Below, in pieces: positions 13,091 through 30,027 of a DNA stretch of 59,302 bases. The notes beneath the pieces are model-generated. The model was not told the origin of the DNA and searched no databases. It saw nothing but the letters and a program-made list of their open reading frames with translations. The number at the start of each line of letters is the position of its first letter. The stretch's first letter is position 1. Where the stretch lies: positions 1 through 59,302 of IMG/VR virus record IMGVR_UViG_3300025889_000130, one strand, 5' to 3'. The translations under genes were made by a program, and so were the position numbers. The DNA is from a virus (lineage: Duplodnaviria; Caudoviricetes).

Positions 13091-13330
13091 TTTTTACCAC
13101 CATCAAATAAACAAATAATCAAATAAATAAATAATACAGTATAGTATAAGATATATGATAAGAAAAACATAAGAAAATATATTAATTAAAAATGTTTTTA
13201 AAAAATTAAGACCAATAGCGTTTTGGCACGCTGGCCGCTGCCCGCCCCGTGCCAATCTGCAAGAAAAAAGTTTTTTGATTTTTTGGCAAAAAGAGTTGAC
13301 TTCACCGCCATTTTCCCCATTATGGAATAC

Positions 13331-13729
13331 ATGATTAACCAACCTTACCTTTCCTTCCCAGCCCAAATTCAACGGGGCAATCTATCTAACGTCTTCCTGC
13401 CAAACAAGCCGTTCAACGTGTATATCGTTCGCGCCCGCTACGACAACCGAGATGCATTCGTTGGCTGCTCCTATTCTCCTGTGGCTCGCTGCAAAACTCT
13501 GGGTTACGCCATTTTGAAGGCAAAAGAATTGGCTGAAAAGCTGTATGACGATTACAATGAAATCGACATGGATGACCCGCACATCGAAATCCGCTTCCAC
13601 CCTGACCACAAATTTCCTGTTAGTAAATCTCAGAAAAAGCGTGAAATGTGGGCTGGAGCTGTTGTTTCGGGCAGCGGCAAAGTTAGCCTTATCCCTCCAA
13701 TGTCAGGAGACGAAGGAATCCCATTTTAA
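13331..13729 (+). CDS. hypothetical early protein (leaderless, MINQPY)
   Basis: TTGACT(13296)-N16-CATTAT, with ATG 7 nt later. Confidence 0.7.
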   Translation: MINQPYLSFPAQIQRGNLSNVFLPNKPFNVYIVRARYDNRDAFVGCSYSPVARCKTLGYAILKAKELAEKLYDDYNEIDMDDPHIEIRFHPDHKFPVSKSQKKREMWAGAVVSGSGKVSLIPPMSGDEGIPF

Positions 13730-13765
13730 CCCAAACCAAAAACCATTACGTATTCGGAGGATAAC

Positions 13766-14017
13766 ATGAAAACATTATTAACAATTATTACAAATTCTGG
13801 TTACATGACCCATGACCAACTCAAAGAAGTGAAGGAGGCATTTCCGAATATGCAAGTCGTTCTCCTTTGGGGGCAGAGGGCAAGGCAAATGGTTGCGGTG
13901 AAGTATGCAGAGGGGATGATAGCGGAAGGTGAAGAGGAGGGTGACTACATTCGCTCAGTCTTCTTTGATGTCGCCACATATGACAAGCTTGTCGATGTCT
14001 TCAACATCTGCGGCTAA
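13766..14017 (+). CDS. hypothetical protein
   Basis: GGAGGA RBS before the ATG. Confidence 0.65.
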   Translation: MKTLLTIITNSGYMTHDQLKEVKEAFPNMQVVLLWGQRARQMVAVKYAEGMIAEGEEEGDYIRSVFFDVATYDKLVDVFNICG

Positions 14018-14162
14018 TGGATTGGGGAATATTCCCCAATCTTCCCGTAGTGTTTTGGCACGCTGCCCGCTGCCCGCCCCGTGCCAATTTGCAAGAAAAA
14101 AGTTTTTTGATTTTTTGCGAAAAAGTTGTTGACCTAAAAGGATTTTCTGTCATTATTGGAGC

Positions 14163-14936
14163 ATGATTAACTTACTAAGCGACCCTTCAAAGATGCCCTG
14201 CAAGGGCTTTAACATTCCAGCAATGAAATTCTGCCCCGCTGCCAAGCTGGTCATGAACCTCTACAAAAAAGCGAAAAAAGAGTTGTCAAAGCTCATTTGC
14301 TCTTCGTGCTATGCTTGTAAGGGGATGTATTTGTTCCCCAACGTTCGGGACTCGTTGCAAAAAAAGGCTGAATTTGTCTTGCAATCTATTCGGGAAGACA
14401 ACGGGGACACGTTTGTCAAAGAGATGTGCGACCAAATTGAAAAAGCTTACTTCAAGAAAGGCGAAAAGAAAAAGCTGAAGAATCTAGACACGAATCTTTT
14501 TCGAGTCCATGATTCAGGCGACCTTTTCAACCCTGCCTATATTGATTGCTGGGTTAGGATTGCGAAGAATTTTCCAACCATTAACTTCTGGGTTCCAACT
14601 CGCGAACACGTTCGGGAAGAACAACTTCCCCACCTGCGCAAACTTGCGGAACTTCCCAATGTTGTTGTTCGCCCTTCCGCATTGGAACTGGATGAACCTG
14701 CGCCACAAGTCGAAGGCCTCGACGGAGGCACCGCAGTTTATACCGATGAAGCCAAGGCCAAGGCCGATGGACACATGATTTGCCCCGCCACCATTCACGC
14801 CCATCGCCTGGGAAGGAAGGGTTGGAAGGCACTGCCACAAAAGGAGCGAGCAAGGTTGGCGAGTTGTGCTGGTAACAACTGCACTGCCTGCTTTCTTAAA
14901 TGTTCAAAAAAACCAAAAGCCTATATGGCTCATTAA
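14163..14936 (+). CDS. GP88-family protein, copy 1
   Basis: SKMPC..FNIPA...C, CSSCYACKGMY, FRVHDSGD, FWVPTRE, NVVVRPSA and C-terminal CP...C..C..C motifs. Confidence 0.8.
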   Translation: MINLLSDPSKMPCKGFNIPAMKFCPAAKLVMNLYKKAKKELSKLICSSCYACKGMYLFPNVRDSLQKKAEFVLQSIREDNGDTFVKEMCDQIEKAYFKKGEKKKLKNLDTNLFRVHDSGDLFNPAYIDCWVRIAKNFPTINFWVPTREHVREEQLPHLRKLAELPNVVVRPSALELDEPAPQVEGLDGGTAVYTDEAKAKADGHMICPATIHAHRLGRKGWKALPQKERARLASCAGNNCTACFLKCSKKPKAYMAH

Positions 14937-15133
14937 AAAAGAATACAAATGCTACTAGGAGTCCTACTTATATGTTTTATCATAGGAGCCTCTTTTCTTT
15001 AGGCTCTACGGTTCGCGTGCTAATTTTTGGCACGCTAGCCGCTGCCCGCCCCGTGCCAACCTTACCGAGAAAAAACTTTCATTATCTTTCAAAAAGCATT
15101 GACATTAACAATTTTTTCTACATCATTAAACCC

Positions 15134-15466
15134 ATGATTAAAATTCAAAATTTAGAGTTCCGCCGAACCAAAACCCTTCACGACAATCCAAAAATTTACT
15201 GGGAAATTGTCAAATGGGATAAAATGAAATTAGATGGTGAGGAAAAGGAGTATTGTTTCAGCCTCGCCATTTGGGATAAGAATGATGAGGGTTGGGAACT
15301 TCGTTTTGTTGGTTCAAGGCCATTTGAACTTGACGGCATGGGAATTTTTTGGGAACTTGCCACCTTTGGACAAAAGTATTTAGATGCACTTTTTGATTTG
15401 ACAGAATCTTATCCTAATGTAGAATATGGCAATTATTATCAAGACAAGGTAAAAAATGAAAAATAA
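15134..15466 (+). CDS. hypothetical early protein (leaderless, MIKIQN)
   Basis: TTGACA(15099)-N16-CATCAT, with ATG 7 nt later. Confidence 0.7.
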   Translation: MIKIQNLEFRRTKTLHDNPKIYWEIVKWDKMKLDGEEKEYCFSLAIWDKNDEGWELRFVGSRPFELDGMGIFWELATFGQKYLDALFDLTESYPNVEYGNYYQDKVKNEK

Positions 15467-15677
15467 TTTTTATAGAGCAGTTGATAGAGATGGCAAGATG
15501 CCTGTCTTATGTAGCAAGGAATATGATATTCCAGAAACACATCCTTATTTTGTAAGATACAAAAACAACAAACCTGTTTCTTATCGTGGTACAGAAGAAA
15601 TTATATTTGAAAATGGAAAAGTTTATGATTATTCAATCAATGAATTTATTTATCCTGACAACTTATTAAAAGAATAA
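15456..15677 (+). CDS. hypothetical protein
   Basis: Overlaps the stop of the upstream gene. Confidence 0.55.
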   Translation: MKNNFYRAVDRDGKMPVLCSKEYDIPETHPYFVRYKNNKPVSYRGTEEIIFENGKVYDYSINEFIYPDNLLKE

Positions 15678-15875
15678 AATGACAATACAAGAAATTGAAA
15701 AAGATGTCCCACCTCATGTTGATGGGAAAAATCGTCGACAACTAATTGATCACCTTTTGGATGAAATGAACTCTGACGGGATGGCAAAACTTCTTGCTCT
15801 TGGCAAGCTGAAAATTCTTTGCCCAAAAAGAAAATAGTTGTTGACAAAACATTAAAAATTAACATACTACAAACC

Positions 15876-16106
15876 ATGAAACGCATATTCAAACTACCAG
15901 TATCTTGGACATCAATCGGAACAATGGAGATAAATGCTTCCAGCCTAGAAGAGGCTATTGCAATAGCAGAGGACGAACTTACGGGGCTTCCAGAAGATAG
16001 CGAATATCTAGAAGGGTCATTTGAAGTAAATGTTGATCTTATCGACGAAGTGAAAGCGGCGGTAGGAGAAGAAAACTTAGCCAACAATGCGATATTAAAC
16101 ATTTGA
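15876..16106 (+). CDS. hypothetical acidic protein (leaderless)
   Basis: TTGACA(15841)-N16-CATACT, with ATG 7 nt later. Confidence 0.7.
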   Translation: MKRIFKLPVSWTSIGTMEINASSLEEAIAIAEDELTGLPEDSEYLEGSFEVNVDLIDEVKAAVGEENLANNAILNI

Positions 16107-16138
16107 CAAAAACATAAAAATCAACAAACTAATAGACT

Positions 16139-16366
16139 ATGAACATTATCAAAAAAATCACTGACTTCTTCACCCCTAAGATGAACCTTGTTTATCAAAG
16201 CAAAAATGGAGACATTGACCTATACAAAGTTAATGCTTTTCATTACAAAAACAAGTTCGGCAACAAAAAGCTCCGCAAGGAAAACATTGGCATCCGCACT
16301 TGGTGTTACAACCGCAAAGGGTATCGTTCTTTTAGGTACGAGGGTATTCTTAGCTTGTCTAAATAA
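16139..16366 (+). CDS. hypothetical protein with WYL-like C-terminal pattern
   Basis: C..R..YRSFR..GI pattern; has its own promoter. Confidence 0.55.
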   Translation: MNIIKKITDFFTPKMNLVYQSKNGDIDLYKVNAFHYKNKFGNKKLRKENIGIRTWCYNRKGYRSFRYEGILSLSK

Positions 16367-16537
16367 TTTTGTTCGGTTATTCATGTTGCCCCGTTGAGAG
16401 CTTGTTGACTTGGTTCTCAACGGGGTTTTTTGGCACGCCAGCGGCTGCCCGCCCCGTGCCAATTTTTATCGTAAAAAATTTTTAATTTTCTGCAAAATTA
16501 ACTTGACCGCACGAAAAAAATCGCCATACTAGTAAGT

Positions 16538-16654
16538 ATGAAAATTAAGGTAAGAATTAAACATGGGATTTGGACGAAGTCCCGCCCACATAAAGTTAAG
16601 AAAAATCTTCTCCCAAGGGAACAAAAACACAAAAAAAGATTTGACACTGAGTAA
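16538..16654 (+). CDS. 38-aa basic peptide (leaderless)
   Basis: TTGACC(16503)-N16-CATACT, with ATG 7 nt later; MKIKVRIKHGIWTKSRPHKVKK... Confidence 0.5.
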   Translation: MKIKVRIKHGIWTKSRPHKVKKNLLPREQKHKKRFDTE

Positions 16655-16703
16655 AAAATCTATTTAATTAAACCTGATTATTAACCTAAAAACTGATAAA
16701 GCT

Positions 16704-17474
16704 ATGAAAACACTAAACATTGACATCTGCGGTTCTGACCGCACCCAAGCCACCCTCGAAGAAGTTTATGCGGTTCAAACGCCACAAAAGACCGATACAT
16801 GGACTCCTATCAGTCACAAGCTACTCATTGAGCAAACCAAAGAAAAGCTGGATGCAAACGGCTTTAACATCATTGCCGAAAATCACAATCTTGCCCGATT
16901 TGGCCAGCGTTATTTTGGCCTCATGCAGGTGCAAGATCGCAACGCTCCTGAAAATCCAGATCGTGCGACTGTGATTGGTTTGCGTAATGGGCATGACAAG
17001 TGCTTTCCTGCTGGTATTATGGCAGGGGATGCCCCATTTGTATGCAGCAACCTTGTTTTCAACAACGAAATCGTCATCGCTCGCCGCCATACGAAAAACA
17101 TCGACAATGAAAACATCGCTGGCAACATTTTCCACAAAGTTGCTAACGCCATCGGCCAACTTCGGGAATCCTGGCAAAGTCAGGAAAAGAGGGTAAACGC
17201 TTACAAAAGCTATGACCTCAGTTCCAATAGTGAGGCCAATGATTTAATCATTAAGGCATATCAAAATGGTGCTTGCTCCAAAACTCAGATCGCTGACATC
17301 GTGGATCAATGGAACACCCCGAATCACAACGAGTTCCTTGACCGCAACCTCTATTCTCTATACAATTCCTTTTCGGAAGTCTGGAAAGGAAACCTGGGAC
17401 TGCTCCCGAATCGTTCTACCCAACTCCACGCCTTGTTCGACGGCGTAGCTGAAGCCGAACTGGTCGAGGCATAA
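16704..17474 (+). CDS. DUF932-family protein
   Basis: GLRNGHDK, AG...FVCSNL and RRHT motifs; C-terminal LYSLYNSFSE. Confidence 0.8.
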   Translation: MKTLNIDICGSDRTQATLEEVYAVQTPQKTDTWTPISHKLLIEQTKEKLDANGFNIIAENHNLARFGQRYFGLMQVQDRNAPENPDRATVIGLRNGHDKCFPAGIMAGDAPFVCSNLVFNNEIVIARRHTKNIDNENIAGNIFHKVANAIGQLRESWQSQEKRVNAYKSYDLSSNSEANDLIIKAYQNGACSKTQIADIVDQWNTPNHNEFLDRNLYSLYNSFSEVWKGNLGLLPNRSTQLHALFDGVAEAELVEA

Positions 17475-17485
17475 AGTACCCCTAA

Positions 17486-17524
17486 TAGCCCCCGCCAAGG
17501 AAAAGGCCACCCTTGGCGGGGCTA
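17486..17524 (+). terminator. GC-rich hairpin before a dyad repeat
   Basis: TAGCCCCCGCCAAGG/CCTTGGCGGGGCTA stem. Confidence 0.6.
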
Positions 17525-17635
17525 AAAATTGGCACGCCAGCGGCTGCCCGCCCCGTGCCAACTTTACCACAAAAAAAATTTATTTTTTTTTGCAAAAAGC
17601 TTGACTTGACCCGATTTTCTGTCATTCTATAAAGC

Positions 17636-18205
17636 ATGATTAACCCATCTAACATAACTAAGTATCAACGTAACGATTATTGCTTACAGGAATTCTTGTT
17701 GTTCTGTATTTGCGTAACTGGAAAAAGGAGTGCAATTGAAAGCGTCAAGCTCGATGCCTTTCTTGATGACAACTTGTTTCCCATACCATTGAAACCTTTT
17801 CAGTTTATTAGGTTTCTCGACTCAATCGGTAAACTTGAGAGTCAACTGCAAAAGCATAGGATCTCACCCTATTCCCAAAGGCTCAAAAGTTTTCGTGCAG
17901 TTACTAAGCTAACAAATCTTGAACGAGTTGAAATAGAGGACTTGGTAACTATCCCAGGTATAGGACTAAAGACGGCAAGATTCTTTTTGTCTCACTCAAG
18001 AAAGAACTTTGATGAACCCGTCCTTGACACTCACATTTTGCGTTATTTAAGGAACAATGGGCATAACGCACCAAAGTCCACCCCACAAAACCCTGAGATA
18101 TACGCAAGGTTTGCCAAAATATTTAAAAATATTGCTAATAAGGCTAATAAGTCCGTCACCAAGCTTGACCTCGAAATCTGGAGGGAGTACAGCGGCTCAA
18201 CTTAA
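17636..18205 (+). CDS. HhH DNA glycosylase/AP lyase (8-oxoguanine glycosylase-like)
   Basis: LVTIPGIGLKTARFFL helix-hairpin-helix with catalytic K; VLDTHILRYL; LDLEIW. Confidence 0.8.
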   Translation: MINPSNITKYQRNDYCLQEFLLFCICVTGKRSAIESVKLDAFLDDNLFPIPLKPFQFIRFLDSIGKLESQLQKHRISPYSQRLKSFRAVTKLTNLERVEIEDLVTIPGIGLKTARFFLSHSRKNFDEPVLDTHILRYLRNNGHNAPKSTPQNPEIYARFAKIFKNIANKANKSVTKLDLEIWREYSGST

Positions 18206-18313
18206 GTGAGTTGGGGAATATTCCCCAATCGCAGGAGTTGGGGAATATTCCCCAATCAAAGTTTTTTAATTATTTTGGTTGACTTGAGCTAATTTTCTGT
18301 CATTCTGTAAAGC

Positions 18314-18727
18314 ATGATTAACTTATTACCCGCAGAGAAGCGAAAAGACCCAAGGTATCTTATCAATCACCTTAAGCCAGTAAAGGTTTACCGCAACCTT
18401 CACAAAAATTGTTATTCAGTTCAGCAAGATGGTTTAGTCAAAGGCCATTTCAAAGAATTAGCTATAAAAAACCCAAAGTTCCTAGTTCAAAGTATTGGCA
18501 GGGAACGAGTTCGCAGAACGCAATCCAAGAATGTCCATGCGTTTGTCATTGGTTACTTGGAAGACTTTGTTGGGCTTCGGGCAATAGCGGGAGAGTGTGT
18601 GACTTATAACCCCTATAAAAATGATTCATTCGTTTATCGGGACACTGGCAATCCAGTCAACAAAAGTAAGTATGCAGACTTTTTTTTCTCGACAGAGGGG
18701 AAAGCCATTGTTAAAGTAGAACGATAA
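18314..18727 (+). CDS. conserved phage hypothetical protein (leaderless)
   Basis: VYRNLHK..YSV, GRERV...SKNVHAFV.G and YNPYK motifs; promoter at 18279. Confidence 0.75.
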   Translation: MINLLPAEKRKDPRYLINHLKPVKVYRNLHKNCYSVQQDGLVKGHFKELAIKNPKFLVQSIGRERVRRTQSKNVHAFVIGYLEDFVGLRAIAGECVTYNPYKNDSFVYRDTGNPVNKSKYADFFFSTEGKAIVKVER

Positions 18728-18728
18728 A

Positions 18729-18920
18729 ATGAAATTTGATTATCCCAGACCACTTGAATTTTTCCACCCTGATTATGATGTCGCCTGTGGAGGCACAGAA
18801 GTACCAATGGTTAGCAAAGCAGGCACAGTGCTTTACGTGTGGAATAAGATAGACAAAGAATATGAATACTATCACTTTGAACATGATAGATTCTATCGAG
18901 AGTACGAAATTGAAATCTAA
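18729..18920 (+). CDS. hypothetical protein
   Basis: Coupled ORF (ACGGTEVP...LYVWN). Confidence 0.6.
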   Translation: MKFDYPRPLEFFHPDYDVACGGTEVPMVSKAGTVLYVWNKIDKEYEYYHFEHDRFYREYEIEI

Positions 18921-18931
18921 TATCAAACAAC

Positions 18932-19198
18932 ATGGAAAAATCATCACTCATTAACCTTATCTGCAAAAAAGACCACCTTGGAACCATGCTTCCGATTTCT
19001 AACGAGCCAGAATTTGATTCTGATACTGGAGAATGGGATTTGTGGTTTGCCTATGAAGACTTGCAAGACCCTGACCGCAATGACGATATGACTCATATTG
19101 GTTTTTCGTCCAAGCAAGCCGCTGAAAATTGCATTGGCGAACTTGTTACAATGCGTGGACAAAAAAGTCTCCAACTTGAAAAAGAGCTGTCTCTATAA
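18932..19198 (+). CDS. hypothetical protein
   Basis: ORF within the operon. Confidence 0.55.
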   Translation: MEKSSLINLICKKDHLGTMLPISNEPEFDSDTGEWDLWFAYEDLQDPDRNDDMTHIGFSSKQAAENCIGELVTMRGQKSLQLEKELSL

Positions 19199-19216
19199 CA
19201 ATAATTAAGAATCAAA

Positions 19217-19402
19217 ATGACTATCAAACTATTAGAAGATATTAAAGTTCTCCCGTATTACGAACTATTCAAAGCTGGCAATTACAAGGCGCACCTTGCT
19301 GTGAATCAACCCAACTGGCAAGAAGAGGGCTTAGTCTTTATTAGTAATGGAGCAACAGACTTGCTTCTTTCCAAGGATGATTATCAAATTGTTTCAAAAT
19401 AA
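19217..19402 (+). CDS. hypothetical protein
   Basis: ORF within the operon. Confidence 0.55.
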   Translation: MTIKLLEDIKVLPYYELFKAGNYKAHLAVNQPNWQEEGLVFISNGATDLLLSKDDYQIVSK

Positions 19403-19853
19403 AAATAATAACCAAAAATAAAAATGATTGTTGAAAAAGTAGTATATGGCTATATCGTCCAACGCTTTAAAGAGGACGGTGAATTTATTGAGCAAGATAA
19501 CTTTGTGGCCGATGGAGACGTCGCCTACGAAGACGAAGATGGAAATCCGCTGGATCATCTCGATCTTTGCAAATATTATCATACTTTTGATGTCAAATAA
19601 CCAAATAATAAATAATTAAATAACAAATAACTTTCGTTAGGTTAATCTGCCCCGTCGAGGTTTATGATGATCCTCGGCGGGGCTTTTTGGCACGCCAGCG
19701 GCTGCCCGCCCCGTGCCAACTTATATTTGCTAGCAAAAGTATTACAAAAGCTGCCCCCCTAAAAAAACACTTTTTCGCAAAAAAAAGTTTGACCACGAGC
19801 TTTTTTCTGTCAAACTAGGGGGACATTAAGATTAACCTGAACGAAAGAAAATT

Positions 19854-20033
19854 ATGTTATCAGTAAAACGCCACCCGAATCTTGACAACTGGTTTGAAGT
19901 CCGCATATTTGGAGAACTCATTGACCAATTTACGTCTGCCGTAAAAGCCATCCAGTTTGCTGAGAAAATTAAGAAAAAAGAAAGGTTTGATATTGTCCAT
20001 ATTGACCTGAAGCGTCAAGATGAAGAAAATTGA
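19854..20033 (+). CDS. 59-aa RHPNLDNW-family protein, paralog 1
   Basis: Translated by hand: MLSVKRHPNLDNWFEVRIFG...; follows the conserved leader. Confidence 0.75.
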   Translation: MLSVKRHPNLDNWFEVRIFGELIDQFTSAVKAIQFAEKIKKKERFDIVHIDLKRQDEEN

Positions 20034-20049
20034 ATCATAATTATTAAAA

Positions 20050-20403
20050 TTGAAAAAACAGATGACCACTATATACCAGCACACACCTCACTACACTATT
20101 ACCCCTTATTACGTTTACGCCGACATCGCAATCCAGGATGTAAAAAACAGGCTCGCCGCCGCAGAAATTCAAATTAGTGTAAGTGAACAACAAAACAGAA
20201 TTGACAACCCGATTGGCACAGGTCCTGGCGGGCGTGTAAGGTTGGGCGATGATATGCTCCCTTCAACTTACCTTATCAGCGTCAGAGATGAAGATGCAGA
20301 AAAAGCTCGGCGGATTCTTGTACATAATTTTGATTCTTTTTCAAGAGATAGGATTGTAAAAATTCTTGCTACTGATACAAAAAAAGATGAAAATTTGTTT
20401 TGA
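20050..20403 (+). CDS. hypothetical protein
   Basis: ORF in cassette. Confidence 0.55.
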   Translation: MKKQMTTIYQHTPHYTITPYYVYADIAIQDVKNRLAAAEIQISVSEQQNRIDNPIGTGPGGRVRLGDDMLPSTYLISVRDEDAEKARRILVHNFDSFSRDRIVKILATDTKKDENLF

Positions 20404-20456
20404 CAATTTAAAGTAATTAACCAGAATAAAACGCATTAACCTGAACTAAGAAAAAA

Positions 20457-20726
20457 ATGAATCAAGATTACGACTACCTTCAACTCCACCATGATGATTT
20501 CGGCCTTGTCGTAAAGGGCTATAAAGAGGATGGTTACCCGTCCCACTCCGTGCTTGCAGGGCAAACCCGCATTGACTATCTGAACACTTTCGACACTGAA
20601 GAGGAAGCTATTAAGGCGTACCCAGAACTCGCCCCAAAAGGCGAAACGCAATGGGGTTCGACCTGGGCGGACGCTCAGATTAAGGACGTTTCTTGGCTTC
20701 CTGATAGACCAGATTTGAGTTTGTAA
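20457..20726 (+). CDS. hypothetical protein
   Basis: Own promoter and ATTAACC leader; SVLAGQTRI motif. Confidence 0.65.
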   Translation: MNQDYDYLQLHHDDFGLVVKGYKEDGYPSHSVLAGQTRIDYLNTFDTEEEAIKAYPELAPKGETQWGSTWADAQIKDVSWLPDRPDLSL

Positions 20727-20728
20727 TG

Positions 20729-20861
20729 GGTTGATCTGCCTCGCCAGGGTTTGTGGTTATCCCCTGGCGGGGCTTCACTTTTCGCTTGTGGGCGGGAATA
20801 GGCTGATTACTGCGTAGCGGGGTCGGCCTCTCCGCTTACGGGCGGGGAGGGCTTCTTTATT
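20729..20861 (+). ncRNA. candidate structured RNA element, copy 1
   Basis: Three GC-rich hairpins; near-identical copy at 21974-22106 whose differences preserve pairing. Confidence 0.5.
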
Positions 20862-21031: not shown

Positions 21032-21280
21032 ATGAAACACCTCTCACAAGCTCTCTCAGAACTCGGACTCTCACAAAATTGGTTCGATGAATTGAAATCG
21101 GAAGTTGAATCGGACAAAACATTTTCTGAAAATGGATTGCTTACCACTACAAGAGAAGATGTCGAAGATGAGTTTGTCCAACTCGATGTCCGTCTTGAAA
21201 AAATTGATGACAATGACGAAAGTTTTGTTGACATGGATGCAGTTTCTTCTACAATGGCAAACGTATTTAACCAAAATTAA
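21032..21280 (+). CDS. highly acidic small protein
   Basis: Promoter at 20965 plus leader; D/E-rich. Confidence 0.65.
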   Translation: MKHLSQALSELGLSQNWFDELKSEVESDKTFSENGLLTTTREDVEDEFVQLDVRLEKIDDNDESFVDMDAVSSTMANVFNQN

Positions 21281-21282
21281 AA

Positions 21283-21438
21283 ATGACAATCGAAACCCTC
21301 AATCTTATTATCGACCAAAACGCTGACGCTGCCCTTGCTGGCGACGAATCCGCAATTTACAACATACAATGGGCTGAAGAGCAGTTGACAAAATTGGCTT
21401 TCCTTAAAGTTCGTGAACTAGACCAAAAACAAAAATGA
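21283..21438 (+). CDS. 51-aa protein, tandem paralog of the next gene
   Basis: LNLIIDQNADAALAGDESA vs INLIFKQNSADAIAGNESA. Confidence 0.65.
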   Translation: MTIETLNLIIDQNADAALAGDESAIYNIQWAEEQLTKLAFLKVRELDQKQK

Positions 21439-21638
21439 GTAGACTTGAATCCATAAATCTTATTTTTAAGCAAAATAGTGCGGATGCTATTGCTGGAAAT
21501 GAATCCGCCTTTTCTAAAATCGAATTGGCTGCAGAGCAGTTGATAGAGTTAGGCCGTTTGAATAAATTAGCATGTCGGCATTTTAGAGAGTGTGCTCAAA
21601 TTAAAGCGGGAATATTTAAAAGCGATTTAGAAAAATGA
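21435..21638 (+). CDS. hypothetical protein, tandem paralog of the previous gene
   Basis: ATGA overlap and similarity to the upstream ORF. Confidence 0.65.
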   Translation: MSRLESINLIFKQNSADAIAGNESAFSKIELAAEQLIELGRLNKLACRHFRECAQIKAGIFKSDLEK

Positions 21639-21973
21639 ATATACTACAAAACATATTACTTGCTATTATCTTTGGCAATTTTGTTGTTGCCGCCGTGATG
21701 GTATTACTTTACATTCAATTTAGCATTGAGGATAAAAAAATGAAAAAAGAACTGGAAGAAATGTATGATGAGTATTATGGGCAAGATAAAAAATCTAATT
21801 AAGAAGGAGAATAAAATGAATCATTTAGTTATTATTGATAAGAAGACTTATTTTGAATATAGGCTTGGGAATCATTGTGGCAGTATGCCGAAGGCGCATT
21901 ACCCACAAGTTCAAGACGTTGTAAGTTATTTGAATAATTATTATTCTTTTGACACTCATGAGGTAATCTAATA

Positions 21974-22106
21974 GGTTAATCTGCCCCGCCAGGGTTTGTG
22001 GTTATCCCCTGGCGGGGCTTCACTTTTCGCTTGTGGGCGGGAATAGGCTGATTACTGCGTAGCGGGGTCGGCCTCTCCGCTTACGGGCGGAGAGGGCTTC
22101 TTTATT
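21974..22106 (+). ncRNA. candidate structured RNA element, copy 2
   Basis: Duplicate of 20729-20861. Confidence 0.5.
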
Positions 22107-22216
22107 TTGGCACGCCAGCGGCTGCCCGCCCCGTGCCAACTTTACCGCAAAAAAAAAATCACTTTTTCACAAAAAAAGGTATTGACTGCATAGCTTTTTC
22201 TGTCATACTGTAGGGC

Positions 22217-22990
22217 ATGATTAACCTACTGAGCAACCCATCCAAAATGCCCTGCAAGGGCTTTAACATTCCAGCAATGAAGTTCTGTCCAGCCGCCAAG
22301 TTAGTGATGAACCTCTGGAAAAAAGCATCCAAGGAACTTTCTAAGCTCATTTGTTCCTCTTGTTATGCTTGCAAGGGTATGTACCTTTTCCCCAGTGTTC
22401 GGGATTCTTTACAAAGTAAAGCTGATTTTCTCTTAAAATCTCTACGTGAAAACAACGGCGATGAATTTGTGGCGGAAATGTCCAAGCAAATTCAGTCCGC
22501 CTATTTTAAGAAGGGCGAAAAGAAAAAACTAAAGAATTGCGACACCAATTTTTTTCGTGTCCATGATTCGGGCGATTTATTCAACCCTGCATATATTGAT
22601 TGCTGGGTTAGGATTGCGAAGAATTTCCCAACCATTAACTTTTGGGTTCCAACCCGTGAACACGTTCGGGAGGAACAACTTCCCCACCTACGCAAACTTG
22701 CGGAACTTTCAAATGTTGTTGTCCGCCCTTCCGCATTGGAATTGGACGAACCTGCGCCACAAGTCGAAGGTCTTGACGGAGGCACAGCAGTTTATACCGA
22801 TGAAGCCAAGGCCAAGGCCGATGGACACATGATTTGCCCCGCCACCATCCACGCCCATCGCCTGGGAAGGAAGGGTTGGAAGGCACTGCCACAAAAGGAG
22901 CGAGCAAGGTTGGCGAGTTGTGCTGGTAACAACTGTACTGCCTGCTTTCTTAAATGTTCAAAAAAACCAAAAGCCTATATGGCTCATTAA
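22217..22990 (+). CDS. GP88-family protein, copy 2
   Basis: Same length as 14163..14936 and near-identical C-terminal half. Confidence 0.8.
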   Translation: MINLLSNPSKMPCKGFNIPAMKFCPAAKLVMNLWKKASKELSKLICSSCYACKGMYLFPSVRDSLQSKADFLLKSLRENNGDEFVAEMSKQIQSAYFKKGEKKKLKNCDTNFFRVHDSGDLFNPAYIDCWVRIAKNFPTINFWVPTREHVREEQLPHLRKLAELSNVVVRPSALELDEPAPQVEGLDGGTAVYTDEAKAKADGHMICPATIHAHRLGRKGWKALPQKERARLASCAGNNCTACFLKCSKKPKAYMAH

Positions 22991-23229
22991 AAAAGAATAC
23001 AAATGCTATCAGGAATCCTACTTATATGTTTTATCATAGGTGCCACCTTTCTTTAGTTCCTACGGTTCGCGTGCTAATTTTTGGCACGCTAGCCGCTGCC
23101 CGCCCCGTGCCAACTTTACCGAGAAAAAAAAATCACTTTTTTGCGTTTTTTTGCAAAAAAGGGGTTGACCTCACGCTTTTTTTTGTCATACTAGGGGAAC
23201 ATTAAGATTAACCCTAACAAAAGAAAACC

Positions 23230-23382
23230 ATGACAGAACAGCAAATCCAATACGAACTGACTTTAATTGATTGGCTTAACGCTCGCCTTGAAAAGTGTCT
23301 GCAAATGGACATGGATAACAGGAATGAGCTTATCAAGCTCAGTCAAGAATTAAAGGCAAAGTTCGTCGAAACCGAAGATTAA
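23230..23382 (+). CDS. 50-aa hypothetical protein
   Basis: Follows the promoter+leader module; MTEQQIQYEL... Confidence 0.65.
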   Translation: MTEQQIQYELTLIDWLNARLEKCLQMDMDNRNELIKLSQELKAKFVETED

Positions 23383-23463
23383 AAAAAATCACTTTTTTGC
23401 AAAAAAGATATTGACCGCAAGCGAATTTTCCCCATACTTACTTTTATAACCTCAAGATTAACC

Positions 23464-23712
23464 ATGACCATTCAAACACTAGCACACGCTGATTCCCTTG
23501 AACGCCTTTCTTTTTCTGATTTGAATTGGGAAGAATATGAAGCCTGCAAGGCTGGCCTTATTTACTACGAAGGCTTGCGGGACTACTTAGAAGCAAACTG
23601 CCCAGAAAACAAGGAAAAGATTTTGGACATCGAAGACACCATTTCAGCCCATTATACTGTCCTTGCTGACATCGTAGGCGGGGCAAAGGTAAATTATGAA
23701 TCTATTATCTAA
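23464..23712 (+). CDS. hypothetical protein
   Basis: Promoter at 23411; AGATTAACC directly before ATG. Confidence 0.65.
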   Translation: MTIQTLAHADSLERLSFSDLNWEEYEACKAGLIYYEGLRDYLEANCPENKEKILDIEDTISAHYTVLADIVGGAKVNYESII

Positions 23713-23876
23713 TGAGCTTAGAAAAATCAATTAAACATAAAAAAGAATATCGCAAGCCTTATTACAAATCAGGAAAATTCGACAAGACTTGTCGCCCAGG
23801 AGGTTCTTGCCCATATTGCAAATCAAATAGAAAACATAAACACAAAAAACAAAAGCTAATTTATAATTATGAATAA
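23712..23876 (+). CDS. 54-aa basic Cys-containing protein
   Basis: MSLEKSIKHKKEYRKPY...DKTCRPGGSCPYC; TAATG coupling to upstream gene. Confidence 0.65.
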   Translation: MSLEKSIKHKKEYRKPYYKSGKFDKTCRPGGSCPYCKSNRKHKHKKQKLIYNYE

Positions 23877-24200
23877 ATTATCAACACAACTAAATAAGTT
23901 TATTGCTAATAATAAAAAAAAGATTGCTCTTCATTATAAAGAAGCAAGGCGAAATACAATGACAGTCGAAGGTATGCTGTTTGCAAGTAAAGTAAATAAA
24001 AAATAATTTCTTATGGTTAATCTGCCCCGTCGAGGTTGATGGTGATCCTCGGCGGGGTTTTTTTGGCACGCCACGGGCTGCCCGCCCCGTGCCAACTTTA
24101 CCGCAAAAAAAAATTTATTTTTTTTCAAAAAAGTGTTGACCGAACGTTTTTTTCTGTCAAACTAGGGGAAGATTAAGATTAACCATAACGAAAGAAAAAG

Positions 24201-24332
24201 ATGAACATCCAAACCCTCGCCCAACTCTCCACTCAAGAACTTGCTATCCTGAACGGGTGGCATGATGACCAAGCCATGACTGGCAATGAAATTGACCAAA
24301 TGGTCGAGCAATTCCAAAAGGAGGACAAGTAA
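24201..24332 (+). CDS. 43-aa hypothetical protein
   Basis: Follows the leader module; TAATG coupled to the next ORF. Confidence 0.6.
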   Translation: MNIQTLAQLSTQELAILNGWHDDQAMTGNEIDQMVEQFQKEDK

Positions 24333-24526
24333 TGAAAGTCATTAGGACAATCAAAGTTGAAGGCATCAGCGGACACGGGAAAAACAGAATCCGTGAGCAT
24401 GGAACCGATTGGGACGTTCTGGCCGAAAGCGGTGAAAAAATGTTAATAGTGCCAAGCGGCCAAGACATCAGCGGCTGGTGGCGATGGATATTGAAACGTC
24501 AAGACCCACATTTTCGACAGGTGTAA
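24332..24526 (+). CDS. hypothetical protein
   Basis: GGAGG RBS; HGKNRIREHG..W motif. Confidence 0.65.
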   Translation: MKVIRTIKVEGISGHGKNRIREHGTDWDVLAESGEKMLIVPSGQDISGWWRWILKRQDPHFRQV

Positions 24527-24675
24527 GTTTTGCTAATTGGCACGCCACGGGCTGCCCGCCCCGTGCCAACTTTACCGCAAAAAAAAATTTATTTTTTTTC
24601 AAAAAAGTGTTGACCGAACGTTTTTTTCTGTCAAACTAGGGGAAGATTAAGATTAACCCAAACCAAAAAACCACT

Positions 24676-24909
24676 ATGACAAACCTTATCAAAGCTATCG
24701 TTCTCGCCGCTCCTGTTTCTTACCCTTACTCTATTGGGCAAGAAACAAGTTTTATCCTTTCAAATGCTGATTACAAAGTTGGCCAAGAAATTTCTTTCAA
24801 CAACGGCTTATCAATCAAAGTAACCGAGCTTCCAGTCATTGATGAGCAAGCCTACGAAGCAATGAAGTCTCGCCACATTGAAATTTCCCACCGCAACGGC
24901 GTAGAATAA
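24676..24909 (+). CDS. SHRNGVE-family protein, paralog 1
   Basis: Follows the leader module; C-terminus shared with 27446..27709. Confidence 0.7.
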   Translation: MTNLIKAIVLAAPVSYPYSIGQETSFILSNADYKVGQEISFNNGLSIKVTELPVIDEQAYEAMKSRHIEISHRNGVE

Positions 24910-25001
24910 AAAAATCACTTTTTCGCAAAAAAAGAGTTGACCGAACGTTTTTTTCTGTCAAGCTAGGGGAAGATTAAGATTAACCCAAACGAAAGAAAAC
25001 C

Positions 25002-25181
25002 ATGCTATCAGTAGAACGCCACCCAAACCTTGACAACTGGTTCGAAGTCCGTGCATTTGGAAAAATGCTCGACCAATTCACATCTGCCGTCAGAGCTATA
25101 CAATTCGCAAAGAAAATACAAAAACAAAAGAAAATTGATAGCATTTATATTAACATTAAGCGTGAATATGATGAAGATTGA
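25002..25181 (+). CDS. 59-aa RHPNLDNW-family protein, paralog 2
   Basis: MLSVERHPNLDNWFEVRAFG... Confidence 0.75.
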   Translation: MLSVERHPNLDNWFEVRAFGKMLDQFTSAVRAIQFAKKIQKQKKIDSIYINIKREYDED

Positions 25182-25374
25182 ATCGCCCTTTGTCCTTACT
25201 TCTTTGAACGAATACAATATCATTCTAAGAAAAGATAATCCATTTTATAAGCCAACAGGAAGGGATTTAATTCTGAGTATTGATGCAGTATTAGCAAACG
25301 AAGATAGATTGGAAGAAATTACTGATCAACTAGGCTTGCCAGAAAGTCAAGCAGTTTTTTTATTGCATGACTGA
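25168..25374 (+). CDS. hypothetical protein
   Basis: MMKIESPFVL..., overlapping the upstream stop. Confidence 0.5.
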   Translation: MMKIESPFVLTSLNEYNIILRKDNPFYKPTGRDLILSIDAVLANEDRLEEITDQLGLPESQAVFLLHD

Positions 25375-25519
25375 CAAAAGCTGGCACGCCAGCGGCTGCC
25401 CGCCCCGTGCCAATTTTACCACAAAAAAAAATTTATTTTTTTTACAAAAAGGGTTGACCTCACGCTTTTTTTTGTCATACTGGGGGAAGATTAAGATTAA
25501 CCCTAACGAAAGAAAAAAG

Positions 25520-25666
25520 ATGACCTTCGTTCAAAATCTCCAACTCAAAATTCGCCTCCAGAACAGCATTGCTAAAAGCAAGGCCGCCCTCGAAGAGATT
25601 AAGGCCGACATAGAGGCACAAAAGGCAGAGATAGCTCGCCTCAAAAAAATTCTCTCTGATATGTAA
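25520..25666 (+). CDS. 48-aa coiled-coil LQLKIRLQNSIAKS-family protein, paralog 1
   Basis: Follows the leader module. Confidence 0.75.
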   Translation: MTFVQNLQLKIRLQNSIAKSKAALEEIKADIEAQKAEIARLKKILSDM

Positions 25667-25703
25667 AAAGATTTGACGTTTACATAAATTTCCACATTCT
25701 CAT

Positions 25704-25925
25704 ATGTATAACCTGATATTGAAAATGATTACTATCAAACGCCACTCGAACCTCGACAACTGGATTAACCTTGCCATTAACGGCAAAGTTTTCAAGCAAC
25801 TGAATTCCCGCTCGAAAGCGGTTAAGATTGCTCACGCTATGGGCAAAATTAAGGGATTGAAGGTGCTTGACCTTGACGTTGGGGAAAGGCATCATGATGG
25901 CAAAACTATTTCAGTAAAATCATAA
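25704..25925 (+). CDS. RHSNLDNW-family protein, diverged paralog 3
   Basis: MITIKRHSNLDNWINLAING... Confidence 0.65.
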   Translation: MYNLILKMITIKRHSNLDNWINLAINGKVFKQLNSRSKAVKIAHAMGKIKGLKVLDLDVGERHHDGKTISVKS

Positions 25926-25943
25926 ACCTCACAAACGTAGTAC

Positions 25944-26150
25944 ATGGAATGGAGTAAAATCATGAATTTGAATCACGAACAAATTGCTTTTTTGCGAGAA
26001 ACCCTAGAAAAGAGAAAGGGTGGCGAATTGTACGCCAAGGAAACTCAAGACCCTATGTATGAGGCTTACCAGGAAGGGGTGATTGAAGAAATTGACGAAT
26101 TGCTCGACATTCTTGGGCCCCGCTCGACTGTTATCGTCACCCAGGGATAA
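25944..26150 (+). CDS. hypothetical protein
   Basis: ORF ends directly at an 18-bp palindrome. Confidence 0.55.
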   Translation: MEWSKIMNLNHEQIAFLRETLEKRKGGELYAKETQDPMYEAYQEGVIEEIDELLDILGPRSTVIVTQG

Positions 26151-26170
26151 TTGGGGAATATTCCCCAACC

Positions 26171-26317
26171 CGCCAAGCCACCCAAGCCAAGCTCCAAACT
26201 TTGCTTTCTGATAAAGACGAACTCGACATCGAGTTCGCCCTCAAGGATAGCATCATGAACCGCGCCATGATTAGCAGTCGTGTTCGTAAAATGAAACGTC
26301 AAGGCGATGAAGATTGA
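26171..26317 (+). pseudogene. 5'-truncated ORF remnant
   Basis: RQATQAKLQTLLSDKDELDIEFALKDSIMNRAMISSRVRKMKRQGDED* has no upstream start or promoter; 3' flank ATCGCCCTTTGT is shared with 25182. Confidence 0.45.
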
Positions 26318-26512
26318 ATCGCCCTTTGTACTCTGCCCCGTCGAGGTTTTTGAATTTTCTCGACGGGGCTTTTTTTGGCACGCCAGCGGCTGCCCGCCCC
26401 GTGCCAACTTTACCGAGAAAAAAATTTATTTTTTTTCAAAAAAGAGTTGACCGCATGCTTTTTTCTGTCAAACTAGGAGAAGATTAAGATTAACCATAAC
26501 GAAAAAACCACT

Positions 26513-26701
26513 ATGAAAAACGAAACAATCGAAAACCCACAAACCGAATCCGAATTCATGGCAGACTGCATGGAGGATTTGGTTTACTACGAAGAACTAT
26601 TAGCTCATGCGGGAAAGAATGGCTCTGATAACAACATGAGCGTCGAACACATCGAGGCGGCGATTGCCGATTTGAAATTTGTAATGGGCATTAACTATTA
26701 G
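26513..26701 (+). CDS. acidic hypothetical protein
   Basis: Follows the leader module. Confidence 0.65.
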   Translation: MKNETIENPQTESEFMADCMEDLVYYEELLAHAGKNGSDNNMSVEHIEAAIADLKFVMGINY

Positions 26702-26881
26702 ATTAGCTTTTTCGCAAAAAAGTTTTGCTAATTGGCACGGGGCGGGCAGCCGCTGGCGTGCCAACTTTACCGAGAAAAAAAAATCACTTTTTTGCATTTT
26801 TTCGCAAAAAAGGGGTTGACCTCACGCTTTTTTCTGTCAAACTAGGGGAAGATTAAGATTAACCCTAACGAAAGAAAAAAG

Positions 26882-27028
26882 ATGACCCTCGTCCAAAAGC
26901 TCCAACTCAAGATTCGCCTCCAGAACAGCATTGCCAAAAGTAAGGCCGCTCTTGAAGAGATTAAGGCAGAAATGGAGGCACAAAAGGCAGAGATAGCCTA
27001 CCTCAAAAAAATTCTCTCTGATATGTAA
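26882..27028 (+). CDS. LQLKIRLQNSIAKS-family protein, paralog 2
   Basis: MTLVQKLQLKIRLQNSIAKSKAALEEIKAEMEAQKAEIAYLKKILSDM. Confidence 0.75.
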   Translation: MTLVQKLQLKIRLQNSIAKSKAALEEIKAEMEAQKAEIAYLKKILSDM

Positions 27029-27090
27029 AAAAATTTGACATTTGCCTAAATTTCCACATTCTCATTGATATAACCTTAACCATAACCATT

Positions 27091-27270
27091 ATGAAAATCG
27101 AAAAACACGACGTAATTATCTACAAAGAAAAAATCTATCATGTCATCCAAGCCGATGCTGAAAATCTTATCGGTCGCCTTTACCGCACAAACAAACAATT
27201 CATAATTCCAACTTCTCAAGCTAAGAAGCACCCTTTCTTCCCTAACGGATTAACCTTCCTTAAACATTAA
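27091..27270 (+). CDS. 59-aa hypothetical protein
   Basis: Own promoter; MKIEKHDVIIYKEKIYHV... Confidence 0.6.
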   Translation: MKIEKHDVIIYKEKIYHVIQADAENLIGRLYRTNKQFIIPTSQAKKHPFFPNGLTFLKH

Positions 27271-27445
27271 CTTTTTCGCAAAAAAGTTTTGCTAATTGGC
27301 ACGCCAGCGGCTGCCCGCCCCGTGCCAACTTTACCGAGAAAAAAAAATTACTTTTTTGCGTTTTTTTGCAAAAAAGGGGTTGACCTCACGCTTTTTTTTT
27401 CCATACTAGGGGAAGATTAAGATTAACCCAAACGAAAGAAAAAAG

Positions 27446-27709
27446 ATGACCAATTCACCAAAAATCCACGTTAAAGCAAAAGTTACAAACTCCTCATCAT
27501 CCTGGCTTAAAGACGGCTCTGTTCGGGATGCGCTCGTTTCGTTAGAAAACGCTGTCGTTGGCAAACTGATTAGAACAACATTCGGATACAGTCTTAAAAT
27601 CACCGAGATAGTCGGAGAGTACGTGCCAGAAACCACACTTTCTGACGAAGAATATGAGGCTCTAAAGGCTCGTGAAATTGAAAAAAGCCACCGCAACGGC
27701 GTAGAATAA
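27446..27709 (+). CDS. SHRNGVE-family protein, paralog 2
   Basis: Follows the leader module; YEALKAREIEKSHRNGVE. Confidence 0.7.
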   Translation: MTNSPKIHVKAKVTNSSSSWLKDGSVRDALVSLENAVVGKLIRTTFGYSLKITEIVGEYVPETTLSDEEYEALKAREIEKSHRNGVE

Positions 27710-27804
27710 AAAAATCACTTTTTCGCAAAAAAGGTATTGACCGCACGGCTTTTTTTCCCATACTTAAGGATATTAAGATTAACCCTAACGAAAGAAAAAC
27801 CATC

Positions 27805-28119
27805 ATGAAATCATATTCCGTCTCCTTCCTCACACAAATTTTCCGCAATGGTGTTTTCGCCAAAGTCGAAAAGAACGCGCTGGTCATCCCAGCAAACTCT
27901 GCCGATGAAATTACTGACGAAAAAGTTAAGCAGTACGCAAGGCATCTTGTTAAAGAAGGCTCCAGCAAAGCTTACAATCCTGATAACATTTTTGAACCCA
28001 TCACCATCACCCGCGCTTTCTACAAAATCGAAAAAATCAAACTCATTCCAGCAATTGATTCTTCTAATTGGGTAGAACACGCTCGCAAGGAAGATTCTCG
28101 CTACTCCTTAGTAAACTAA
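27805..28119 (+). CDS. hypothetical protein
   Basis: Follows the leader module. Confidence 0.7.
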   Translation: MKSYSVSFLTQIFRNGVFAKVEKNALVIPANSADEITDEKVKQYARHLVKEGSSKAYNPDNIFEPITITRAFYKIEKIKLIPAIDSSNWVEHARKEDSRYSLVN

Positions 28120-28313
28120 TCAAGGTTATAGGATTGGGGAATATTCCCCAATCGCTGGGGTTGGGGAATATTCCCCAACTTATCTTTGCTTGTAAAAGTA
28201 TTTAAAAAGCCTCGCAAAAAAAAATCACTTTTTTGCAAAAAAGGTATTGACCAAACGCTTTTTTTTCCCATACTTAAGGATATTAAGATTAACCCTAACG
28301 AAAGAAAAACCAT

Positions 28314-28574
28314 ATGAAAAAAATCACACTCTCCTCCTCTAAGATTAACGCAGTTCACGATACCCTTAAAAGTATGCATGAAAATTTCGCAGTTGAGCAA
28401 GTTAGCGGGCGTTATGACCCGAAACCTGTAATTGATTGCATTGAAAAAGGTTTGTTCCACCAAGCCGCTGAATGGGCGATTTGCTCTTATTTAGAACAGA
28501 ATGGTGATACAGTCGATGTTGATAACTACATTGCAGACCTTATTGACGATTTCGAGTTTATTGTAAACTCGTAA
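28314..28574 (+). CDS. hypothetical protein
   Basis: Follows the leader module. Confidence 0.7.
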   Translation: MKKITLSSSKINAVHDTLKSMHENFAVEQVSGRYDPKPVIDCIEKGLFHQAAEWAICSYLEQNGDTVDVDNYIADLIDDFEFIVNS

Positions 28575-28668
28575 AAAAAAATCACTTTTTTGCAAAAAAG
28601 GTATTGACCAAACGCTTTTTTTTCCCATACTAAAGGATATTAAGATTAACCCAAACGAAAGAAAAAAG

Positions 28669-28782
28669 ATGACCCTAGTCCAAAAACTCCAACTTAAGAT
28701 TCGTATGCAAAACAGCATTGCCAAAAGTCAGGCAGCAATCAAAGAAATTAAAGCCGACATGGAACGCATTCGCAAATTTTAA
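28669..28782 (+). CDS. LQLKIRMQNSIAKS-family protein, short paralog 3
   Basis: MTLVQKLQLKIRMQNSIAKSQAAIKEIKADMERIRKF. Confidence 0.7.
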   Translation: MTLVQKLQLKIRMQNSIAKSQAAIKEIKADMERIRKF

Positions 28783-29532: not shown

Positions 29533-29559
29533 AATAAATTATATTAAAGGATACAAGAA

Positions 29560-29944: not shown

Positions 29945-30027
29945 AAAATATCTGATATATTATAATGTATTTATCTTTTTTTTAAAAGTATTATTTAAAT
30001 ATATATTGCAAAGTGTAATATATTTAT

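Follow-up and report, generated by a model that had tools for sequence, protein, structure and literature searches.

An array of self-promoted gene units resembling promoter-early stem-loop cassettes, with an invariant 33-bp palindrome at its joints, in a large uncultivated phage

The attC sites of integron cassettes have the structure R''/L''...L'/R', with a GTTRRRY core and extrahelical bases. Repetitive extragenic palindromic (REP) sequences and bacterial interspersed mosaic elements (BIME) are G+C-rich intergenic palindromes of bacteria, with conserved stems, that lie at the 3' ends of transcription units and occur as several types side by side. In phages, promoter-early stem-loop (PeSL) cassettes are known from the T4-type pairs RB49/phi1, PST/T4 and nt-1/KVP40 (PMC2839356, PMC4122927); their architecture, terminator function and mini-circles have been described (PMC4122927, PMC2839356), and in 2010 their authors asked whether a specific recombination protein targets the stem-loop (PMC2839356). 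Here we describe an array of small gene units, most of them headed by a 33-bp palindrome that we call the type A dyad, in IMG/VR virus record IMGVR_UViG_3300025889_000130 (Duplodnaviria; Caudoviricetes). The window, as we call the stretch analysed, is the whole record of 59,302 nucleotides; it is estimated to be 39% complete, belongs to an uncultivated phage of fresh and estuarine waters with a large genome (about 160 kb), and is contained in freshwater and estuary metagenome runs. The array is largely explained by the published PeSL concept; what it adds is a tripartite palindrome that is invariant at the joints and that, in a close relative, has been exchanged throughout for a different one. 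Among the matches listed, literature searches for both arm words of the dyad returned nothing related, and those for palindromic repeats, early promoters and gene cassettes in phages nothing relevant, as judged by title and abstract.

An initial annotation of the window did not recognise the array as a described element. This does not stand, since PeSL cassettes, as presented in the text of the two papers (PMC2839356, PMC4122927), share its stem-loop, AT tract, sigma-70-type early promoter and small open reading frames (ORFs) in a hyperplastic region. In both systems a stem-loop is closely followed by an AT-rich tract, a strong sigma-70-type promoter and small ORFans; the elements cluster in hyperplastic regions between conserved genes and coincide with insertions, deletions and replacements between relatives; and there is no known dedicated recombinase, the phages (here, relatives of the window) having a RecA-like recombinase of their own. 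Because the architecture matches, we read the array as PeSL-like and driven by homologous recombination between regulatory blocks, and we regard it as fairly probable that it is a PeSL-type cassette variant shuffled in this manner and not an integron. Each unit would then be self-contained, with a palindrome, an A-tract upstream element, a strong sigma-70-type promoter, a leaderless start or one without Shine-Dalgarno box, the ORFs, and often a terminator. The repeated regulatory blocks would act as portable linkers, general phage recombination crossing over between them so that whole units could be deleted, duplicated or reordered with expression intact. Homologous recombination would be the engine, the units would be expressed early by the host polymerase, and the dyad would be the junction module of the system, perhaps as a boundary or insulator, a back-up terminator, or a cruciform target of structure-specific phage nucleases. 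On this reading modular shuffling of the PeSL type is not limited to T4-type phages but reaches an abundant, uncultivated lineage of aquatic habitats, and the array also supplies evidence from natural populations that whole units are gained and lost.

The type A dyad was first noted as 15 copies of TTGGCACG-N17-CGTGCCAA with variant spacers in the leftmost ones, and both points hold: 15 copies span positions 13223-27328 (Table 1), with variant spacers in the leftmost three, whereas shuffled sequences give 0.02 copies on average and never more than 1. Fourteen are exact and one, at 25381, has a single mismatch and begins CTGG; seven are identical 33-mers, and the arm words have no further occurrence anywhere in the window. 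The refined pattern is TTGGCACG-N6-GCWGC-N6-CGTGCCAA, a tripartite palindrome with an 8-N6-5-N6-8 layout. Its spacer has a common orientation in 14 of the 15 copies, the exception being at 26732, where the spacer is the exact reverse complement and the flanks are unchanged. As RNA, all eight of the dyads tested are predicted to fold at -13 to -24 kcal/mol (z -2.4 to -4.8). The 3' side lacks a T run and typically reads CTTTACC; the terminator scan listed no dyad, its loop limit of 8 nt excluding the 17-nt spacer. A scan against Rfam found one tRNA only, and no RNA family at the dyads.

The unit layout proposed in the initial annotation (dyad, A/T tracts, TTGAC promoter, ORFs, and often a terminator hairpin) is present at all 15 dyads as far as the promoter, the dyad lying 28-70 nt from the -35 box with phased A/T tracts between them. 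The promoters have the form TTGAC(C), 16-17 nt, then a CATACT- or CATTCT-like box, with A/T tracts upstream, and a consensus scan finds 61 sites as compared with 36.5 +/- 5.0 in shuffles. Unit lengths, put at about 0.35-2.2 kb and shortening rightward, are measured at 357-2158 nt with the same trend, and each unit holds one to six small ORFs. The extent given for the dyad-delimited array, to 28782, needs qualifying; it is good for the 15 units but not for the last three (promoters 27737, 28247 and 28604), which have no dyad. In all, our own pattern finds 28 promoter blocks in the array as against 15 dyads, leaving 13 without one. A G+C-rich hairpin with a T run, the proposed terminator, stands directly before six of the 15 dyads (that in Table 1 and similar ones before 19687, 20862, 22107, 24063 and 26375), and at these six the T run merges into the first TT of the dyad; the hairpin before dyad 17529 has no T run. 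At nine array promoters, within 13296-22209, the ATG follows the -10 box by 6-8 nt, as in leaderless genes, and at twelve there is a 37-40-nt leader without a Shine-Dalgarno (AGGAGG-like) box. Further promoters of the leaderless type, with the same ATG spacing, occur at 10328 and 11795. The GATTAAC word of leadered units is also found in the first codons (ATGATTAAC) of leaderless ones. Of the 43 array ORFs, for which the initial annotation proposed a role in early host takeover or anti-defence, 38 match no Pfam family, the five others being GP88 (twice), L5 gp82, an Ogg-like glycosylase and DUF932. PADLOC gave one weak match (E 3.3e-4) among the 43, which we treated as noise. The GC fraction is 0.39-0.42 in the array and about 0.32 on both flanks.

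Comparison with relatives shows rearrangement of the units at their joints. The closest relative for the array region (G005; 82-92% nucleotide identity) has no type A dyad and carries at its joints a second palindrome, type B, described below. Its unit order is U1 U2 U3 U4 U5 U6 U7, and that of the window is U4 U2 U1 [Ogg] U3 U5 U6 U4' U7, the Ogg unit being absent from G005. The initial annotation had proposed looking across relatives for breakpoints at the dyad, and all eight order breaks between these two genomes contain or abut a junction palindrome, a result that random placement of the same intervals reaches in 0.0017 of trials. Four shared blocks in G005 stop 6-10 nt short of the type B pair that follows, and when the window is compared with more distant relatives, the homology sets in at dyad base 1 (14054, 16429 and 22106). 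The relatives have a broadly common family order (f19, f18, f30, f20, f29 ...), of which the window is a permutation. X3 and X5 contigs, from two other studies, join 13220 to 14053, a loss of exactly unit 1 (13223-14054), with 210 and 170 nt on the two sides and 0-2 mismatches in the X5 contig. Other X5 joints match a G005-like order (17499 to 18211, 18255 to 15071, and 16430 and 22022 to 28133), which accounts for the joints that appear to go back. Two more lie at a promoter-block start (24907 to 28574) and between tandem paralogues (21430 to 21631). The description of the array as modular, rearrangeable and made of self-promoted units is thus upheld by the order breaks, the loss of unit 1 and the homology starts at dyads. 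Tandem paralogous small ORFs are seen at 21283-21638, and the X5 contig with the 21430-to-21631 joint lacks 200 nt, as unequal exchange between such paralogues would give.

There are also signs of recent exchange inside the genome. The near-identical blocks of dyad, promoter and leader that were reported before unrelated ORFs, at 24063 and 24537, match at 122 of 122 positions; the identity begins at dyad base 1, with no identical base to its left. The dyad-to-dyad unit reported as duplicated is so (Table 1), the copies being identical at 837 of 980 aligned nt and their proteins at 239 of 258 residues. The rightward increase in likeness among units is also apparent, the dyad and promoter blocks being 74-94% alike right of 23 kb and 53-79% left of it.

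Several observations weigh against reading the array as a PeSL variant shuffled by homologous recombination. PeSL stems are loose G-run/loop/C-run terminators (their conservation is judged here from the papers' text, and the supplementary element lists could bear on it), whereas the dyad is an invariant 33-bp palindrome with a 17-nt spacer. The dyad lacks a T run and has a separate terminator before it in 6 of 15 cases, so that its role may differ from that of the PeSL stem-loop. In the same text the PeSL element has a Shine-Dalgarno and a start codon at its 3' end, whereas there is no Shine-Dalgarno here, and PeSL hosts are T4-type myoviruses, whereas this phage, judged by its terminase sequence, is not T4-like. 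Between closer relatives many homology breaks fall inside units, away from dyads; the sides of most X5 joints are short (20-49 nt), and these joints stem from a G005-like strain; and the unit order of the window rests on one assembly, the Logan contigs of X1 and X2 breaking inside identical dyads and neither confirming nor refuting it.

These breaks, the seven identical 33-mers and the 122-nt identical blocks are what one would expect if the repeats, the duplication or the unit order were assembly artefacts. We consider this highly improbable, above all for the repeats and the duplication. The dyad array recurs in 18 independent contigs, and independent assemblies give the same order within subgroups (G002/L030/L012; G003/L013; L036/L040/L033). 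The duplicated units differ at 143 of the 980 aligned positions, with both copies covered in X1 and X2, and since they have diverged they are not a product of assembly collapse.

Beyond the window, the refined dyad pattern is found in 29 stretches of 18 other IMG/VR contigs, each with several copies that are confined to the equivalent region and head similar units; in a 162-kb relative that is 96% complete (G001), all seven dyads lie within 6.3-15.1 kb. Only two matches occur among 185,579 bacterial and archaeal species genomes, one a chance match in coding sequence and the other on a probable phage contig, and we rejected the dyad as a host genome element on account of this near-absence. There are 97 distinct copies in context, of which 91 are oriented by gene direction and six ambiguous ones were dropped; the 91 comprise 59 distinct 33-mers, several contigs are near-duplicates and copies from related contigs are not independent, so that logo and orientation counts overstate the sample size, which is to be set with the points above that weigh against our reading. 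In the oriented copies 11 of the 16 arm positions are invariant, as are G15, C16 and G18 of the centre. The information content of the N6 segments is 0.5-1.0 bits on the left and 1.0-1.45 bits on the right, and the A/T-richer N6 is promoter-distal in 65 copies, on the opposite side in 14 and equal in 12; spacer orientation is mixed among the G001 dyads. Spacing hardly departs from 17 nt, which is found in 66 distinct sequences, and short forms with 5-7-nt loops are rare (after a tRNA in L024, in L009/L013, and as a near-copy in the window at 29118-29138).

Where one arm alone is changed, the sense strand has a C.A mismatch in 10 copies and a U.G pair in four, and no compensatory arm pairs are found among the oriented copies; nothing therefore shows selection for pairing as such, and the sequence itself is clearly constrained. 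Because the arms and GCWGC are invariant in deeply diverged relatives, the dyad is probably read sequence-specifically, by a putative protein or as a hairpin or cruciform, and is probably not a mere stem-loop. In relatives, junction palindromes lie directly 3' of tRNA genes (L012:6821, L012:9813, L024:5288 and L045:5712), so tRNA genes too sit in such arrays as units.

One known kind of recognised sequence that the dyad resembles is the sigma-54 promoter. The resemblance is striking, and each half might be a -24/-12 site for the host's sigma-54 polymerase, serving either as a promoter that reads into its unit or as a place where a stably bound, inactive polymerase insulates the units. A GC follows the GG of TTGGCACG by exactly 10 nt, and the 17-nt E. 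coli motif (PMC4591121), for example the pspA site, lines up in register with the first 17 nt of the dyad. Many relatives' copies have T14. Neither the GG of positions 3-4 nor the GC of 15-16 varies, some copies read TGGCACG-N4-TTGCA, and all five positions termed important (3, 4, 14, 15 and 16) agree in 50 of 77 relatives' copies on the gene strand as against 12 of 77 on the other. However, T14 is present in none of the 14 oriented window copies on either strand, the dyad is palindromic and doubled, its perfect inverted right arm being left unexplained, and type B, which replaces it at homologous joints, has no such motif. The sigma-54 DNA-binding domain (PF04552) was not found in the phage records searched (the window and four relatives), nor was an activator gene; PF00158 has a single match, to an AAA+ protein of G001 that resembles a clamp loader and was rejected as a dyad-cognate candidate. 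The frequent leaderless starts also fit hosts such as actinobacteria, which are not known to have sigma-54. We therefore find a sigma-54 role quite improbable. The sigma-like protein encoded in the window was also considered as dyad-cognate, and more likely serves the motif before late genes described below.

The type B palindrome, TTGGGGAATATTCCCCAA, has six copies in the window, four of them as two pairs with copies 9 nt apart, and each pair stands before a promoter, where it takes the place of a dyad. G005 has eight type B pairs, one per unit boundary. At the joint after the DUF932 gene, where the two genomes can be aligned, the upstream hairpin and the downstream A-tract and promoter are homologous; the window has a type A dyad between these flanks, G005 a type B pair. 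Such wholesale replacement by another palindrome in a close relative is a further difference from PeSL. Arrays of type B were not found in the viral contigs scanned other than that of G005; four lone copies occur in other viral contigs in unrelated contexts. Type C is a G+C-rich palindrome of about 77 nt at the joints of G006 and its near-duplicates.

A niche shared by at least three palindrome families (A, B and C, the last in G006 and G002) recalls REP/BIME sequences, which are likewise G+C-rich, intergenic and of several types side by side, and the palindromes could be selfish or neutral elements, REP-like or resembling miniature inverted-repeat transposable elements, that spread by conversion or copying into terminator-promoter gaps and have no function of their own. 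Two type A dyads of G002 (L017) within a few bases of type C arm sequences, the replacement of type A by type B at every G005 joint between otherwise homologous flanks, and half-elements (L050-L055 have the right half of the type A dyad only) could all be understood in this way. Yet we hold a functionless spread to be unlikely, as these palindromes are in a phage, tied to promoters and confined to one region instead of genome-wide, the dyad is near-absent from the species genomes, and no RAYT-type (Y1) transposase (PF01797) was found in the window and four relatives (G000-G004). Moreover, the arms and centre are invariant beside a freely varying N6, even among the seven G001 copies, which argues for purifying selection on a recognised sequence.

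Whether a dedicated enzyme, such as a recombinase or a nuclease specific for hairpins or other structures, might cut and rejoin the dyads, moving the units as integron-like cassettes, bears on the integron-like organisation suggested in the initial annotation. The array shares with integrons its tandem small units, palindromes whose conservation is imperfect, the ends being constant and the middle variable, and whole-unit gain and loss. The dyad has conserved arms and an asymmetric spacer and is about the size of a lox site; the junction of the unit-1 deletion falls at the edge of the dyad, within its first 13 nt; the twin blocks are identical from dyad base 1 onward; each genome's joints carry one element type, as with the type B pairs of G005; the spacer at 26732 is inverted in place; and the window encodes endonuclease VII-like and ERCC4-type nucleases. 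But the integron analogy fails on several counts. Each unit has its own promoter in place of one Pc, there is no integrase, attI, attC core site or extrahelical base, and the arms TTGGCACG/CGTGCCAA are perfect 8-bp repeats without a GTTRRRY core. The search for a recombinase or single-strand annealing protein that had been proposed found RecA/UvsX-like genes in two relatives (G001 and G009) and no RecT; in the window and four relatives (G000-G004, with G001 96% complete) neither tyrosine (PF00589) nor serine (PF00239) recombinases were found, the PF00589 search matching 14 of 14 control genomes. Mixed spacer orientation in G001, and breaks in the A-tract and promoter block (24907 to 28574) or in tandem paralogues (21430 to 21631), as homologous exchange gives, likewise speak against it, and we judge site-specific recombination at the dyads decidedly unlikely. 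The HNH/HTH endonuclease at the left border was rejected as a dyad-cognate protein, having no homologue in the fetched relatives.

Within the PeSL-like reading, the dyad follows terminators and precedes upstream elements, a position that speaks for a role as boundary or insulator, or as cruciform target. A stronger form, which we think possible but doubtful, is that palindromes A, B and C are sites of putative lineage-specific factors, or cruciform targets of the endonuclease VII or ERCC4-type nucleases, and actively steer breaks and exchange to unit boundaries. If so, this would be a recombinase-free, integron-like cassette-exchange system in lytic phages, and the switch of palindrome type between the window and G005 would define gene-exchange compatibility groups of co-infecting phages. 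The invariant palindrome and its replacement make the question of a stem-loop-targeting protein testable in this lineage, and should such a factor exist, the joints would make up a natural toolkit of expression units that are both insulated and portable.

Table 1. Positions of the array, its repeats and promoters, and neighbouring features (window coordinates except where a contig is named)
Feature	Position	Strand	Remarks
Variable array of putative early genes	13223-28782	+	15 dyad-headed units and dyad-less promoter units, ~43 small ORFs
Type A dyad 1	13223-13255	+	variant spacer CTGGCC
Type A dyad 2	14055-14087	+	heads GP88-like unit, copy 1
Type A dyad 3	15027-15059	+	near-copy of right arm (GCGTGCTAA) precedes
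Type A dyad 4	16430-16462	+	heads DUF932 unit; intrinsic terminator directly upstream
Type A dyad 5	17529-17561	+	heads Ogg-like glycosylase unit; type B pair at homologous place in G005
Type A dyad 6	19687-19719	+	
Type A dyad 7	20862-20894	+	
Type A dyad 8	22107-22139	+	heads GP88-like unit, copy 2
Type A dyad 9	23081-23113	+	
Type A dyad 10, promoter and leader	24063-24184	+	122/122 identical to 24537-24658
Type A dyad 11, promoter and leader	24537-24658	+	twin of 24063-24184 block
Type A dyad 12	25381-25413	+	one mismatch, starts CTGG
Type A dyad 13	26375-26407	+	
Type A dyad 14	26732-26764	+	inverted spacer, flanks kept
Type A dyad 15	27296-27328	+	
Duplicated unit, copy 1	14055-15026	+	GP88-like ORF 14163-14936
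Duplicated unit, copy 2	22107-23080	+	GP88-like ORF 22217-22990
Promoter blocks 1-10, first bases	13296, 14129, 15099, 15398, 15841, 16103, 16503, 17601, 18279, 19789	+	
Promoter blocks 11-20, first bases	19882, 20400, 20965, 22182, 23165, 23411, 24136, 24610, 25454, 25673	+	
Promoter blocks 21-28, first bases	25867, 26447, 26816, 27035, 27380, 27737, 28247, 28604	+	last block ends 28631
G+C-rich hairpin and T run (example)	16385-16429	+	directly before dyad 16430
Type B, single	14022-14039		15 nt before dyad 2
Type B pair	18211-18255		replaces dyad before promoter of L5-gp82-like gene
Type B, single	26151-26168		
Type B pair	28134-28178		before promoter 28247
Type C-family sites	L051:5681-5735, 7070-7146, 11252-11328, 12577-12653		
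Short hairpin	29118-29138		near-identical dyad arms, 5-nt loop; in non-coding stretch closing array
rIIA, rIIB and DNA ligase genes	2-7 kb		
Endonuclease VII-like gene	1135-1863		
tRNA-Leu (left border)	12266-12352		
HNH/HTH endonuclease gene (left border)	12354-12968	-	
tRNA-Met (left border)	13013-13090		
Sigma-like protein	31765-32499		Sigma70_r2 E 1.2e-5
TGTGTAATA-like motif	30010-30027, 36735-36751, 38772-38788, 46560-46579		and others upstream of late genes

The array is flanked by conserved genes, with rIIA, rIIB and ligase on one side and PhoH, sigma-like and terminase genes on the other, and the same flanking layout is found in relatives, with different gene content between. Downstream lie PhoH, the sigma-like protein and the ERCC4-type nuclease, and farther on the terminase and a tape-measure protein. 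The HNH endonuclease of the left border, which carries an IS630-type HTH domain and is missing in every relative fetched, probably belongs to the homing endonucleases. The array is closed by a non-coding, A/T-rich stretch with G and C runs (28783-29183) that is conserved in relatives (tblastx matches at 28891-28989), and the genes past it at 29184-29944 may be on the minus strand. Several structural and late genes have a TGTGTAATA-like motif some 8-12 nt ahead of their ATG, and the sigma-like protein of the phage may use this motif as its promoter type.

Against cultured phages, all 127 terminase matches have less than 60% identity, those listed (Bacillus, Thomasclavelia and Geobacillus phages) having 21-28%, and blastn of 22000-29000 gave no match. 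Uncultured aquatic relatives of the terminase number 2019 at E<=1e-20 among 8000 candidates scored; some (P0007 and P0008) are 1031 aa long, with intein and homing-endonuclease domains. Among possible clues to the host, a WhiB gene was looked for and not found. The dyad at L062:761-793, on a 20.9-kb contig of a metagenome-assembled genome labelled uncultured Pseudomonadales, matches that of viral contig L026 exactly; the 20.9-kb contig probably comes from a phage and was binned with that genome, so that it gives a weak host lead at best. The window itself is a mosaic, with the rII region (1-8000) and the array 82-92% identical to G005, and the PhoH-to-portal region (30000-39400) 65-75% identical to G005 and about 73% to G002.

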